Source of the DNA: Callorhinchus milii
Taxonomy: Eukaryota
Direction of reading: 5' to 3'
DNA length: 64,000 nucleotides
NCBI RefSeq assembly: GCF_018977255.1
Contig: NW_024704742.1
Coordinates: 32,304,001 to 32,368,000, forward strand
The first letter of the stretch is position 1; each line of letters starts with the position of its first letter. Shown here piece by piece: positions 12,696 through 47,225 of the stretch. The translations under genes and the position numbers were made by a program. The notes beneath the pieces are model-generated. The model did not search any database. It was given only the letters and a program-made list of their open reading frames with translations, and was not told the DNA's origin.

Positions 12696-13016
12696 ATAAT
12701 AATAATAATCCGTGCATTTGATACTGCGCTTTTCACGTCTTCTAGATGTCTAAAAGCATATATAAGCAGACAGAATATACTGTAAAGTGAATTGACTACA
12801 TTTTGTGGGCGAAATACGACAACCATTTGCGCACAGCAGTGTCCCACAAACAGTAGTGGATTGAAGTGACCAATTTATTATTGTTTTTTTTTCTTGAGGG
12901 GTTATGATCAGGCATGTGGAACAAGGAAACTTGCCCAAGGTTTCGCCCTGCCTGGAATCGAACCCAGGTCTCTCGCTTGCGAGGCGAGTGCTCTAACCAC
13001 TGAGCTACAAGACTCC
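12696..13016 (-). mobile_element. Young tRNA-Ala-headed SINE (short variant), full length
   Basis: GGAGTCTTGTAGCTCAGTGGTTAGAGCACTCGCCTCGCAAGCGAGAGACCTGGGTTCGATTCC head, CCTTGGGCAAGT, Deu 3' part, (TTA)n tail. Confidence 0.92.
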
Positions 13017-25918: not shown

Positions 25919-26239
25919 ATAATAATAATAATAATCCTTGCATTTGATATAGCGCTTTTCATGTCGGGAGGACGTCCAAAAGCGCTTCACAGAACACACT
26001 GTAAAGTGAATTGACTGTATATTTGTGGGCGAACGCGGCAGCCAATTGCGCACAGCAATGTCCCACAAACAGTCATAGTTTGAAAATGACCAATTTATTA
26101 TTGTTTTTGCTTTTGGAGAGATTATTATTAGGCTCTGTGTGGAGTAAGGAAACTTGCCCAAGGTTTCGCCCTACCTGGAAGTGAACTCAGGTCTCTCGCT
26201 TGTAAAGCGAATGCTCTAACCACTGAGCTACAGGACTCC
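25919..26239 (-). mobile_element. Young tRNA-Ala-headed SINE (short variant), full length
   Basis: Close to the 37213-37533 and 46623-46947 copies; (TTA)n tail. Confidence 0.93.
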
Positions 26240-36477: not shown

Positions 36478-37590
36478 ATGGCTGAAAGCGCAGCCACCAA
36501 TGGTGGAATGGAGGATTTGAGGGTGATACAGAAGCCCGGAACCAGTCGAGTGGAGGCAGCGGATTGTCAGCTGAGGGGTAAGGAGGTTGGAGAGGTAGGG
36601 ATGTGCCAGGACATCAAGGGATTTGAAATTGAGTGTGAGGATCTTGAAATCGATCGGTTTGGTGATAGGGAGCCAGTGGAGCCTGGCTAGAACTGGTGTG
36701 ATGCGGGTATGGAGTTTACTGTGGGTGGTGGAGTTTGGATCAGCTGGATCCTATGTCTGGTGGAGCTGGGGAGACCGGTAAAGAGGGCATTTAAAAAGTC
36801 GAGTTGGGAGGTTACAAACGCACGGATGAGTGCTTCAGCTGGATCTGGGGTAATGTACGATTGGAAGCGGTCAATGAGGCAGAGCTGGAGGAAGGCGGCA
36901 GGGACTGCATGTAGGGAAGGAAGGACGGCTGCGGGTCGAACCTGACTCCTAGGTCATGCTCTGGTTTGTGTGTCTGAGGGATAGGCCAGGAAGGTTGAGG
37001 AGGTCAAAGCTGGAGGATAGAAGATATTGATGAGAGCTAAGCAGTACCATTTCTGTCTTGTCAACATTGAGTTGCAGGAAGTTTGCACCCATCCAGACCC
37101 TGATGTCTGCCAGACAAGCAGAGAAAACATTGGCGGACCTGGAGTCGCAGCTGGAGGAGAAGTAGATTTGTGTGTCATCCCATATTTGTGGAAGTTTACC
37201 CCATGTTTGCAGATAATCCTTGCAATCTTTGCATTTGATATAGCGCTTTTCATGTCGGGAGGATGTCCCAAAGCGCTTCACAGAACACACTGTAGAGGGA
37301 ATTGACTGCATATTTGTGGGCGAATGCGGCAGCCAATTGCGCACAGCAATGTCCCACAAACAGTCGTAGATTGAAAATGACCAATTTATTATTGTTTTGG
37401 GTTTTTGGAGGAATTATTATTAGGCTCTGTGTGGAGTAAGGAAACTTGCCCAAGGTTTCGCCCTCTGCCTGGAATTGAACCCAGGTCTCTCACTTGCAAA
37501 GCGAGTGTTCTAACCACTGAGCTACAGGACTCCAATGACATCGCCAAGAGGGAGCATTTGGATAAGGAAGAGGAGGGGGCCAAGAAGAAA
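36478..37590 (-). mobile_element. L2 (subfamily A) RT fragment split by a young SINE
   Basis: HGVNFHKY, DDTQIYF, LADIRVWMGANFLQLNVDKTE; continues at 37534-37590 beyond the SINE. Confidence 0.9.
37213..37533 (-). mobile_element. Young tRNA-Ala-headed SINE (short variant) nested in L2
   Basis: Full head to tail; L2 sequence is contiguous on either side with no clear TSD. Confidence 0.93.
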
Positions 37591-39850: not shown

Positions 39851-42525
39851 TACTAGGTTTATAAGAACCAGCTGCTAAATTAAGACTCAATTTAGAATTT
39901 TCTACAATTCTGCGTAATCTTAAATTTTAAGATAAAATAGCTCCGCAGGCTTAGAGTCACTGGAATTTCATGTCTCACAAACTCAGCCTTTGGAAAACTC
40001 ATGTGCTAGCACTCAGAAGTACAACTACATAGACTATTATGCTACCTTCGATGCTTGTGAACAAATAGCTAATGTATAACCATACATTTGAGCACAGAAA
40101 AATAACAACACATTTGATATAACCCTCAGCTCTGGTCCATAACTCTGTCTGTCCAGCACCTTGGGACGTCCTCCCGACGTGAAAGGTGAGCTATACAAAT
40201 GTAATTTTGTTGTTGTTTCTCCTCTCTGGGACACAGCAATGTGTGAGGGGCGCTATATAAATGCAAGTAGTTGTTGTTTCTCATCGGGAAGAAGTACTTT
40301 ACCGTAAATCTTGTGGAGCGCCTCAAAGTCAAGTGTAGTGACTTGGGTTTTGTAGGCAAAATTAACTCCAGTAACATTCAGCTGTAATTCCCTGGAGGTT
40401 ATTCAGTAAGCCAATGACCACACTTAATGACCTCAGCAGGTTCTTTGAAGATTATATTTGCTGATGTGTTGGAAAAAATCAATATTAAAAGACAGGGGGC
40501 CTGAGATCTGCCTCACACGAGCAGAGCTGGGCAATATCTATATTATGAATTCTGTCTGTTCAGGCAGTGGAAGCTATTTAACATCTTCAAGCCATGCGAG
40601 ACCACAAGTTCTTTAAATCTTGTGGCCATTTGTAATCCTTGTACTCAAAAAAAAAAAGGAATCTCACAAATACACAGGGAGATATCACATATATTAAGTC
40701 CTTAATCATAAAATATTATGTTTTAGTAATTTGCCCTTGAAAACCTTGAGTCATTTTGTAGTATTAATATTTAAAATTGTATCTTGACCTGGAAACAATG
40801 TCTTAATTTTTAATAAATAGCGTATGTGTGGAAAACAGCCAGTCCATAGAGAGAAAGGGGAGAGAGAGAGAGCAGCTATGTATTCAATGATTGCAGCTTG
40901 TGCAGGTACTCCAATCTGCTGATTCTGCAGCATAGACACTTACAGCGCAGAAGAAAACCATTTGGTGATCAAGTCTGCACTGGCTTTCAGAGCAAGGTGT
41001 TCATTCAATCCTACTACCTGCCTTGTCCCAATGCTCCTTCAAGCCTCTATCCTTCATACACACGTCTGATTCCCACATTTGTAATCAAGGCTTTATACCC
41101 CCAAAACTGTTCACTCATGTTGGTCATGATGTTGGTCATTTAGCAAGTTAGCTTTGAGTGCTTGTTTTAGATGTGGACAGTTGCTCATCATTGCACTTGG
41201 AATTTAGAAATGTATACTTTTAATAACTTTACTCAGTGTCAGCCTGGCATCCTTCAGATCTTCCCAAGACTTTTTCAAAGAGAGAAGGGAGTTTTTCCCC
41301 AGCCAACGATACTCTAAATATATTAATCATTCTTCATGACTGCTTGTGGGACCTTACATTATTCAAATTGGCTGCCTCACTTGCCTACGAATACATAGTC
41401 ACTGCACTTGGCAGCAATTAATTTCTGAAATGCTTTGAACCATTTCAGCATCATAGGTGCGGTATCCAATGCAAGAATTATTTGTGAAGAGATCCCCTCA
41501 AGATAATGTTACAATAGGAGATGTGAAGCATGTGAACCGGGATCAAAACAAAGGATACCATAGAGTTTCATAGTGCTCCAAGGTGGTGTATTTTAGAATG
41601 GAGTTCCAGCCAGCTGGCTTCACACATTTCTGGTTATTGATAGGTTCCCACTGGGTTTCTTTAATAATGAATATTATTAAAATTGCTGCAAGTTAGGCCA
41701 CATTTTCCATTCTTCCTTGTTCTGGTGTCATTGTGTTGTGCAGTAGCTCCAGATGAGAAGAATTTGAAACCCCATACTTGACCTAGAGCGTGCCAGCGTG
41801 TATGAAAGGTATCGCTCCAGAAACAATTCCCTTTCTCATTTTCCCTTCAAGCTTCAGGGACATGTCTGGCCTTTTTTCATTTCCTCCTACACAGTGAAGC
41901 TGAGAATAGCAGCTCATCAGATTCTGGGTTTGAGCCTGTGTCCTTCTTTTCTGCACCAGGAGCTCTGCTTGCCTGCTGTTAAATCTTGAAACTGCTATTG
42001 TTATATGCAAAATGATAAAAGGCCAGTCGAGCCATCAAGACTGTTCCACAGACCATGTAAAATGCAGCCAATGACCCAATTATCTCTTGGGCAAAGTCAG
42101 TGAAATAAATGTTCCAGATTATTAATCCATTTCCACATCTCCACGGTTCACCCTTACCTTCTTTTCCCAAAGCCAGTTCAAAGCTTCCTTCACACACCAT
42201 TGGAGTTGCTAGCTGTGTCATTCAGCATTGGACCGCTGCTTCACGAGATAACAGCTTAACTAGCGTTAAATCAGTGTCTGTGAAGCTAATCCATGAAGTG
42301 GCACTAAATGAGGTGTTCTGCAGCCAGCAACCCCCCTATTGGCAGCTGCAGAAGGGTTTCAAAATTAAAAATTTTAAGATCTCACAAGACAGCATGACAT
42401 ACATGAGGTTTCTTATAAAAGATATATTTGATATCCTGAGATACTTCATCTGGCTTTATTTTTGGTCAGTCGGGTGATTTCACCGTGCGTTCAGAGTAGT
42501 CAAATCAAACACACCTTAAACTGAG

Positions 42526-42624
42526 TTCTGACCTTCTGACGAAAGGTTATTGACCTGAAATGTTAACTCATTTTCCTCTCTCCATAGATGCTGTTGCTTG
42601 TTCCCAGTGACTTCTGTTTTTAAT
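42526..42624 (+). mobile_element. ~99-bp insertion with minimal type I hammerhead ribozyme motif, copy 2
   Basis: GAGTT...CTGACGA-A-AGGTT(ATT)GACCT-GAAA-TGTT-AACTC then TCTCCATAGATGCTG...CTGTTTTT; perfect 16-bp direct repeat CACACCTTAAACTGAG at 42510-42525 and 42625-42640. Confidence 0.8.
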
Positions 42625-43159
42625 CACACCTTAAACTGAGATGTGGAGCTGCTACGAGGACAATGATTAGAGAAAGTACACATTGCAAATCACACAATCT
42701 GTGAAATGTTAGCAATAATGATGTAAGTAAAAAGGGAGAGGAGACAGCAAATGTGACAATGACAGCGAGAGGTGCTAATTATTCCATTAATTAATGGAAT
42801 AGAAAGAGATTAGGTTAAAGTCTGAGGAAAAGTAGTAACGCAAGTTGTCAGGTGAATACAGTGAATGAAAGTAGTGAGAATGTGGATCATTAAACCAATG
42901 GTGAACTGGCTGTCAAGGTGCAAATGAGTCAACTGTTCATGTGATTGGTATTTTATTAAGTCCTCATGGAGAAAACTAGTTGATTGTGAACCTGGCAGCA
43001 GTAGGAAATGAAATAAAATATTGGATGTGTAATGAAGAAAATATTGTGTGGGGAAAGGGTGGGGGTGGTGGTGAGCGCTTTCATCCAGTAGGTCGTTGTT
43101 ATTACTGGTATCTAGCAATTACATACTCCTTTCCAGACAAAGGAAGTTTAATAATAATT

Positions 43160-46470: not shown

Positions 46471-47225
46471 ATCCTTGCATTTGATACATCTTTCACATCA
46501 GGAGAGTGTGTCAAAACGCTTCACAAGATTTACTGTAAAGTGTAATGAGTGTGCGTTTTGTAAACAAATGGAGTAGCCAAGTTGCACACAGCAATATCCC
46601 ACAAACAGCCATGCAGTGAGTGATAATAATAATAATAATAATAATAATCCTTGCATTTGATATAGCGCTTTTCACGTCGGGAGGACGTCCCAAAGCGCTT
46701 CACAGAACACACTGTAAAGTGAATTGACTGTATATTTGTGGGCGAACGCGGCAGCCAATTGCGCACAGCAATGTCCCACAAACAGTCGTAGATTGAATAT
46801 GACCAATTTATTATTGTTTTTGGTTTTGGAGGGATTATTATTAGGCGTGTGGAGTAAGGAAACTTGCCCAAGGTTTCGCCCTCTGCCTGGAATTGAACTC
46901 AGGTCTCTCGCTTGCAAAGCGAGTGCTCTAACCACTGAGCTACAGGATCAATTCTAATTGGGAGATTGTTGGCCAGGATACCATGAGAAACTCCCTTCTT
47001 TTTTCAAAAGTGCCGTGCAATCTTTAACGTCCGTCTGAACAGGTATAGGGGATCTTGGTTTAACATCTCATCTGAAGGCCATCACCTCTAATAATGCAGT
47101 ACATCTGCAGCAATGCATTGAGGAGTCAGCCTGGACTATGAGCTCAAAGTCTAAATATGGAGCTTGAACTCACAATCTTCTGACTCCGAGGGCAGAGTGC
47201 TACCCACTGAGACAAACTGACACCG
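46471..47225 (-). mobile_element. Old Deu-domain SINE split by a young SINE insertion
   Basis: 3' part 46471-46622; 5' part 46948-47225 with tRNA-like head. Confidence 0.87.
46623..46947 (-). mobile_element. Young tRNA-Ala-headed SINE (short variant), best-preserved copy
   Basis: CpGs intact; tail stem-loop AGCGCTTT-GGG-ACGTC-CTCCC-GACGT-GA-AAAGCGCT at 46664-46699; (TTA)n tail. Confidence 0.95.

Follow-up and report, generated by a model that had tools for sequence, protein, structure and literature searches.

What are two hammerhead-bearing repeats of about 100 nucleotides (nt), each lying between its own pair of perfect direct repeats, and how did they come to stand alone in a vertebrate genome? 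The question is raised by a 64,000-nt stretch of the Callorhinchus milii genome (NCBI RefSeq assembly GCF_018977255.1, contig NW_024704742.1, forward strand, positions 32,304,001 to 32,368,000; hereafter the window), in which the repeats occupy positions 1043-1140 (copy 1) and 42526-42624 (copy 2). An initial annotation of this DNA had proposed a discrete ~100-nt mobile unit. We find instead that the repeats belong to a module that is the 3'-terminal part of an abundant canonical Penelope-like element (PLE), present in the same orientation just downstream of the endonuclease in 27 of 30 retrieved loci. Both window copies are probably dead, tail-less retrocopies of this ~135-nt module; that judgement is made jointly with the explanation that we prefer as a whole, namely retrocopying of the PLE 3' module with internal priming and an RNA start at hammerhead helix I. 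The two odd ribozyme repeats would then be ordinary products of a known retrotransposon class, and no new category would be needed.

The module and its parent element

A genome pattern search (991.5 Mb) with a 36-nt core (CTGACGAAGGGTCGTGGACCCGAAACGTTGACTCAC, up to 3 mismatches) gave 1,645 + 1,698 matches, i.e. at least 3,343 copies, and the reversed control gave 0; the first 100 core matches listed were all exact. The module is ~135 nt long and contains, from 5' to 3', a minimal type-I hammerhead, a ~60-nt spacer, a first putative cDNA start zone (...CTGTTTTTG, module nt ~97-104), and a tail of 35-37 nt that ends in a second such zone (...GTGTTTTG). It extends beyond what is seen in the window: according to the flanks of 30 copies, many copies continue after ...CTCTGTTTTTG with ~37 nt more, GTTTCAGATT(T)CCAGCATCTGCAGTATTTTG(T/C)GTTTTG. 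There are accordingly two classes of 3' end, at nt 96-106 (40 of 103 module matches) and at nt 126-137 (47 of 103), with 16 matches ending elsewhere; the 103 are the distinct module matches in all loci that we collected. The window copies are both of the short class. Contigs of public runs diverge from the module at positions 154/155 and 193 of L080, a near-consensus natural copy (G000:C1:25212828-25213053), and these are the short and the long 3' end. The module looks non-coding, because a 1-nt indel between subfamilies breaks its only open frame (by eye).

The module is the 3' end of a canonical PLE, because it follows an open reading frame (ORF) for a GIY-YIG endonuclease with a reverse transcriptase (RT) upstream, the combination that defines canonical PLEs (PMC11167929, and the excerpt of PMC8557442); a known kind of element is thus found in a further genome. 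A Pfam search of the genome for GIY-YIG gave five matches above the cut-off of 22.6 bits (the best at 35.4 bits). At one locus (L036), the endonuclease ORF is followed by ~100 nt of pyrimidine-rich untranslated region (UTR; ...CAACATGCCCCAG) and then by TTCTGACGAAGGG. Using this ORF as query, tblastn returned 151 matches from 2,914 candidates, and these supplied the loci mentioned above. The nearest database proteins, P0004 and P0005 from sharks, align at 57-61% identity and contain RVT_1, a PADKGG (DKG-type) motif, a LVLTFHP region and GIY-YIG. P0005 has 75 matches in the genome (9,343 candidates), and at 9 places the coordinates put the RT match immediately upstream of a match to the endonuclease on that strand. 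One copy spans ~3.0 kb, from residue 59 of P0005 (C2:42554404) to a UTR-linked module (C2:42557297). The endonuclease-linked copies are truncated at varied points, and all PLE copies that we inspected are truncated or broken by stops. Among 16 ORF pieces upstream of the endonuclease in the collected loci, Pfam found no RT.

RVT_1 matches in L060, L048 and L067 were considered as the RT of the PLE and were not counted: they are collinear with one another and were read as part of a neighbouring long interspersed element, and in L067/L068 the RVT_1 lies just downstream of a 517-aa ORF resembling an AP-type endonuclease by eye. As an observation in its own right, L060, L067/L068 and L048 each contain a 5'-truncated PLE fragment just downstream of the 3' end of that RVT_1-bearing repeat, in the same orientation, which may reflect an insertion preference or chance. 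We also note that public runs under two other organism labels hold about half of the sampled words of the L080 module, so the module family is shared beyond C. milii.

The two copies in the window

The features of the two copies are as follows (read from the sequence unless another basis is given; all on the plus strand).

1030-1042, +, left target-site duplication of copy 1, GTGTAACTCTCAG; its last two bases, AG, are also the first two of the family itself
1043-1140, +, copy 1 element
1043-1078, +, minimal hammerhead motif of copy 1 (manual reading against 100 exact-core genomic copies)
1045-51, +, CTGACGA of copy 1; 1052, unpaired G; 1053-57 and 1061-65, stem II GGGTC / GACCC
1066-69, +, GAAA of copy 1; 1070-71, CG; C1072; T1073, before the predicted cut; 1074-78, GACTC
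1079-1140, +, module remainder of copy 1, subfamily A (...CCCAGCTCTCTCTGTTTTT), tail-less 3' end
1141-1153, +, right target-site duplication of copy 1, GTGTAACTCTCAG
42510-42525, +, left target-site duplication of copy 2, CACACCTTAAACTGAG; its terminal GAG could pair as outer helix I
42526-42624, +, copy 2 element
42526-42533, +, TTCTGACC of copy 2, a direct re-copy of the module's first 8 nt
42534-42541, +, TTCTGACG of copy 2, directly after TTCTGACC
42534-42569, +, minimal hammerhead motif of copy 2 (by-eye reading against the minimal-hammerhead features of PMC4209133)
42536-42542, +, CTGACGA of copy 2; 42543, unpaired A; 42544-48 and 42552-56, stem II AGGTT / GACCT
42557-60, +, GAAA of copy 2; 42561-62, TG; 42563-64, TT; predicted cut after 42564
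42565-69, +, AACTC of copy 2, the 3' strand of helix I
42570-42624, +, module remainder of copy 2, with a tail-less 3' end of the short 'site A' class (...CTGTTTTTAAT)
42625-42640, +, right target-site duplication of copy 2, CACACCTTAAACTGAG, identical over all 16 nt at the two boundaries

A MAFFT alignment covers the two copies over their whole length (mean column identity 76%, flanks included). L080 finds them in the window by BLAST with 90% (copy 1) and 76% (copy 2) identity, and this search gave no module copy besides these two. The duplication of copy 1 measures 13 bp (or 14 bp with the T that 1029 and 1140 share), and both duplications are placed exactly at the homology boundaries; by simple arithmetic, ~0.002 perfect 16-mer repeats and ~0.14 perfect 13-mer repeats within 150 nt of each other are expected by chance in 64 kb. 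Since homologous copies are flanked by different perfect duplications, they represent two independent insertions, as the initial annotation had stated. Its other readings of the letters are borne out as well, i.e. the start of both elements at exactly TTCTGAC, the left repeats ending in AG (copy 1) and GAG (copy 2), the 8-nt duplication that separates stem I from the core in copy 2, and the GUU cleavage triplet kept in copy 2 (GTT at 42562-42564, before the predicted cut; the triplet of copy 1 is GCT). The region of copy 1 (window 1 to ~3100, L002) is present again, inverted, on another contig (L001, G000:C2:21940774-21943869), with 99.6% identity across 3,090 nt, the element and its duplications among them; it reflects either a recently formed segmental duplication or a duplicate from the assembly, and no third insertion.

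The family hammerhead reads AGUU-CUGACGA-A-GGGUC-GUG-GACCC-GAAA-CG-UU-GACU, with the predicted cut before GACU. It has a helix I of 4 bp including one G.U (AGUU/GACU), one unpaired base before a 5-bp stem II, a kept G10.1-C11.1 pair and, where stem III would be, the palindrome ACGU. The core boxes C3-U4-G5-A6-N7-G8-A9 (CTGACGA) and G12-A13-A14 (GAAA) occur in both window copies and, without mismatch, in at least 100 genomic copies, and the family's A-CG-U-U fits A15.1-U16.1, a palindromic 15.2-16.2 and H17. In copy 1, helix I adjoins C3 and helix II is closed by G10.1-C11.1 as in the family, and C1072 stands at position 16.1 (family T), which makes an A.C mismatch. In copy 2, the A-UG-U-U is palindromic only through G.U wobbles, the closing pair of helix II is A-U, and the 8-nt re-copy TTCTGACC parts the GAGTT (GAGUU) strand of helix I from an intact core. 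Because of the C at 16.1 in copy 1 and the 8-nt re-copy between helix I and core in copy 2, the hammerheads of both copies are probably inactive.

Thermodynamic folding of the monomer favours core bases paired with ACGU (-10.9 kcal/mol versus -1.6 kcal/mol for a hammerhead-like fold). For the minimal hammerheads of PLEs, action as dimers has been proposed and cleavage in vitro is poor (PMC4209133). In the public-run data, no pile-up of read ends was seen at the predicted cut. The commonest variants among genomic copies are CpG transitions, with G8 and G12 changed in 8-15% of contig depth, so the genomic copies decay neutrally.

The difference in stem II (GGGTC/GACCC in copy 1, AGGTT/GACCT in copy 2) had been put forward as covariation supporting a conserved RNA structure. 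The compensated pair is real; it is neither private to copy 2 nor a case of repeated covariation, because the same pattern (A...U closing pair, AUU loop, AACUCA, CCTCTCTCC) recurs in ~19 of the first 100 module matches listed (by eye). These form an older subfamily C, from which copy 2 inherited the change. Copy 1 falls into subfamily A, with a median identity of 0.93 to the copies of that subfamily. By eye, the hammerhead of subfamily C differs from that of A and B at five positions (both partners of one pair, two loop bases, and one G.U that became A-U), and these changes break no pair and spare the core. As a single evolutionary event, this gives modest support for constraint in master copies.

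Ends of the copies and how they may arise

We followed the left (5') boundary of the family in samples and by genome pattern counts. In an unbiased sample of 23 copies (the 23 exact-core places that come first on contig 1, in coordinate order), 6 run into the PLE UTR, 9 lie against an inverted partner, and 8 lie against unrelated DNA. Scripted classing of 51 sampled copies, a set that includes the second arms of four inverted pairs, gave 8 with PLE UTR upstream, 17 with an inverted partner and 26 with an unrelated flank, and 43 of the 51 stop within ~3 nt of the same point. Genome-wide, a 12-nt UTR anchor stands upstream of 30 of 183 subfamily A copies (16.4%) and 151 of 827 B/C copies (18.3%); these shares are lower bounds, as mutated anchors are missed. 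Put the other way, ~82-84% of copies begin within ~3 nt of AGTTCTGAC, and 16-18% continue into the PLE 3'UTR. Among the 103 collected matches, 82 reach nt 1-5, and contig loose ends accumulate at positions 57/58 of L080, i.e. at the A and the G that precede TTCTGAC. A fixed left boundary, as suspected from the two window copies, is therefore genuine genome-wide. As its causes we rejected a ribozyme-cut RNA as template (only 2 of 103 matches, at nt 32 and 35, start near the predicted cut) and a splice acceptor (polypyrimidine and CAG before TTCTGAC), since the duplications abut the boundary with no exon-1 sequence. We also rejected subfamily A as a solo-only lineage, given its share of UTR-linked copies.

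PLE hallmarks named in the excerpt of PMC8557442 are 5' truncation, an inverted 5' copy and a 30-40-bp tail. An optional tail of this size is seen here in the two 3' end classes and in reverse-complement tails standing alone on the 5' side (L085, L092 and L011), and inverted 5'-truncated partners are seen both in the 51-copy sample and at 21 two-arm loci. At these 21 loci the copies lie head to head, with both arms complete to TTCTGAC and spacers of a few to ~30 nt. By eye, short stretches of the module head (its first 8-11 nt) are copied again, in direct orientation, within several spacers, as is the case with TTCTGACC in copy 2; such re-copying of first bases is expected at a template end. 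Target-site duplications of 9-16 bp were found in 8 further copies, where the clear ones often overlap the element's first 2-5 bases; the microhomology suspected at the left junction thus recurs, and it varies by copy (TT, GTTCT, AGT, TTCT). The family is not a tandem retrozyme, because no two cores lie head to tail 88-143 nt apart (0 pairs in a genome pattern search with exact 13-mer anchors, which could miss degenerate arrays). One head-to-head pair (L079, 15-110) has sub-threshold matches to miRNA precursors (mir-641, 55 versus 100 bits) because of its inverted repeat; such pairs form long hairpins and could be a source of small RNAs.

By analogy with an Anolis PLE studied in vitro, we propose that the PLE protein would cut the target and begin cDNA synthesis at an internal site, in one or other of the two zones (the first zone for both window copies), and that ribozyme-sense RNA would be copied towards its 5' end. 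The non-hammerhead end would thus be the priming end and the ribozyme-sense RNA the template, because there are two fixed 3' termini 35-37 nt apart, and longer copies extend on the hammerhead side into UTR and ORF. The second DNA strand may often be primed too, which would yield the inverted partners. Less certainly, about four fifths of the copies may stop at the A, G or T of AGTTCTGAC as the template would be a short RNA beginning there, perhaps transcribed from the initiator-like CCCCAGTTC at the junction of 3'UTR and helix I; we infer from the shared terminus that an RNA 5' end lies at hammerhead helix I. Points in favour of such a start are the likeness of CCCCAGTTC to an initiator, the re-copied first bases noted above, and the reported start of PLE transcripts in the upstream pseudo-long-terminal repeat (pLTR; excerpt of PMC6765202). 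The 5' junction would be sealed by 2-5 nt of target microhomology, which may also account for the AG/GAG seen at the window copies.

For PLE specialists, the copies offer a footprint from a vertebrate genome, consisting of two fixed 3' ends one tail apart, head-to-head arms ending at one base, head re-copies of 8-11 nt, and a 5' terminus common to about four fifths of the copies. It fits a mechanism of internal initiation on two strands that has so far been shown only in vitro, for one lizard element, and it points to a defined RNA 5' end at helix I.

Several observations weigh against this explanation. No intact full-length ORF was seen among the PLE copies inspected. In the only two near-full-length copies examined, L094 (G000:C2:15517050-15518049, minus strand) and L095 (G000:C2:42553650-42554420), the module is not repeated at the 5' end, as the simplest version of the model would have it for the full-length RNA. 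These two share a 5' start (...AGCAGCACC...; ...CTTKCCCTTYAGCAGCACC...) that differs from the module start and has no module upstream; a candidate start codon follows ~100 nt later (ATG in L095, CTG in L094), and the DNA further upstream is unrelated. Direct pLTRs from a partial tandem arrangement were not found in these two copies; master copies in tandem may lie at other places. Subfamily C copies seldom carry the 12-nt UTR anchor, with ~0-2 among the first 100 anchored matches listed versus ~19 among the first 100 module matches listed (both by eye), and the parent element of this subfamily may be diverged or missing. In a raw-read RNA run (poly-A single-cell, under another organism label), reads fall on both strands and 85% continue into unlike sequence; there was no pile-up of molecule starts or ends in this run, whose library would miss short RNAs that lack poly-A. 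Contigs of presumed RNA runs contain the module and show neither ends nor strand. The start zones are T/G-rich on the sense strand, as opposed to the AC-rich stem-loop in Anolis. Finally, Rfam gave no hammerhead match at gathering score in the whole window and none at E<=10 for both window copies and three near-consensus copies; the term hammerhead thus rests on manual reading of the core, as no Rfam model matches, and the miss is expected for motifs that have no stem III, yet it is a failed test.

Three other explanations were weighed. Random 5' truncation with a coincidentally shared start would suit the heavy 5' truncation for which PLEs are known (excerpt of PMC8557442) and the copies of intermediate length that exist (L019, L027, L029, L076 and L087). 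It is already contradicted by the breakpoint distribution, as 82 of 103 matches and 43 of 51 copies converge on one point, both arms of the 21 inverted pairs end there, and contig breaks cluster at the same two bases; we consider it very improbable. The initial annotation had foreseen that the copies might be variable-length remnants of a Penelope terminal repeat, and of this the PLE terminus is right and the random length is not. Its own mechanism was target-primed integration in which genomic ...(G)AG-3' would serve as primer on the hammerhead side, with the antisense strand of the ribozyme possibly being copied. The left duplications of both window copies end in AG or GAG, and a G precedes TTCTGAC in ~31 of 43 sampled copies that have no upstream UTR (count by eye), as such priming would have it. 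However, the two fixed termini 35-37 nt apart are at the opposite end and are the published signature of RT initiation by a PLE (PMC11167929), longer copies run from the hammerhead end into UTR and ORF in ORF sense, the AG is element sequence in UTR-linked copies (...CCCCAGTTCTGAC), and the microhomology differs among copies. Target-primed retroposition is kept from this proposal; the hammerhead-end priming with an antisense template is already contradicted, and has in our view the least chance of all.

The module could also be a self-propagating retroposon similar to short interspersed elements (SINEs), a 'monomeric retrozyme' with its own edge promoter, whose RNA starts from AGUUCUGAC and is copied by a PLE protein acting in trans at the two internal start zones, so that short copies would arise from other short copies instead of being by-products of full elements. 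The sharp 5' terminus of ~82-84% of copies would suit this, as would the rarity of the UTR anchor in subfamily C (by eye). Solo copies are also more alike than body-linked ones (median pairwise identity 0.94-0.95 versus 0.88-0.90), although this gap is confounded, since the body-linked set was picked by protein similarity regardless of age. The compensated pair and the other structure-neutral changes between C and A/B (by eye) hint at a ribozyme kept by selection in masters, and a preprint (10.64898/2026.07.22.740005) argues for an origin of animal retrozymes as non-autonomous derivatives of PLEs, with monomers also reported. On the other hand, A and B have about equal UTR-linked shares and neither looks solo-only, the promoter on the module is only putative, and no discrete short RNA appeared in one RNA run, though its poly-A library would miss it. 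We judge this reading unlikely, although well ahead of the two former ones; were it true, the solo modules would be a self-sustaining lineage, a monomeric, non-tandem counterpart of retrozymes. Retrocopying of the PLE 3' module remains the explanation that we prefer.

Comparison with known hammerhead-bearing elements

Dispersed single motifs and opposite-strand pairs were described for the minimal hammerheads of PLEs (Cervera & de la Pena 2014, PMC4209133). The family resembles these in its CUGANGA and GAAA boxes, the one unpaired base before stem II, the 4-bp helix I, and the palindromic 15.2-16.2 (ACGU) in place of stem III, which implies action as a dimer; also shared are the thousands of dispersed single motifs, the opposite-strand pairs and the few motifs inside full elements. 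It differs in having a stem II of 5 bp (7-8 bp in the Schistosoma examples of that paper) and, in subfamily C including copy 2, an A-U in place of the usually conserved G10.1-C11.1. The same paper ascribes single motifs to 'truncated PLEs' and describes no discrete 5' terminus.

Another parallel is the Poseidon PLE of Anolis carolinensis (PAc; Frangieh et al. 2024), for which target-primed reverse transcription in vitro involves cutting and extension of both strands and two internal RT start sites, with the tail being the stretch between the two sites (PMC11167929). As in PAc, a hammerhead is followed within ~60-100 nt by two adjacent cDNA start sites, with an optional tail of 30-40 nt between them; use of both target strands fits the head-to-head partners found here, and ribozyme-cut ends, absent among the PAc products, are rare here (2 of 103). 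In PAc, however, the hammerhead overlaps with the beginning of the ORF, and the start sites belong to an AC-rich stem-loop within the ORF; here the module comes after the ORF and its putative zones are T/G-rich. We considered the module as an ORF start, as in Anolis, and rejected it: the sole ATG-led frame is shifted by the 1-nt subfamily indel (by eye), and the N-terminus of the shark homologue is unrelated.

Animal non-LTR retrozymes (Cervera & de la Pena 2020, PMC7229834; Li, Clavereau & Pollet 2026) are likewise short non-coding units with a type-I hammerhead that are kin to PLE pLTRs, and monomeric derivatives are reported in the latter work, a preprint. Retrozymes are defined by head-to-tail tandems yielding circular RNA, unlike the present copies, which stand singly and dispersed or in inverted pairs, have target-site duplications and show 0 head-to-tail pairs at unit period. 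The schistosome repeats Sm-alpha and Sj-alpha are also short, dispersed, retroposed and hammerhead-bearing (excerpt of PMC6765202); their unit has a promoter upstream of the ribozyme according to the same excerpt, unlike the module, in which no promoter part was found. In line with this, Rfam gave no tRNA-, 7SL- or 5S-type match on the window copies or on three near-consensus copies.

A second PLE family with the same hammerhead architecture was found at L037 (G000:C138:44000-53999), where motifs at 562 (+), 5574 (-) and 4001 (-) lie beside another GIY-YIG match. Its motif reads CTGAGGA-C-GGCTGC...GTGGCC-GAAA-CG-TC-GTGAG (predicted cut before GTGAG), with helices UUCAC/GUGAG and GGCUGC/GUGGCC.

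The window itself is dense in SINE-like families of 10-20 copies each. Four tRNA-like Rfam matches on its minus strand (12943-13014, 26166-26237, 37465-37527 and 46883-46945) lie within other, highly repeated units.

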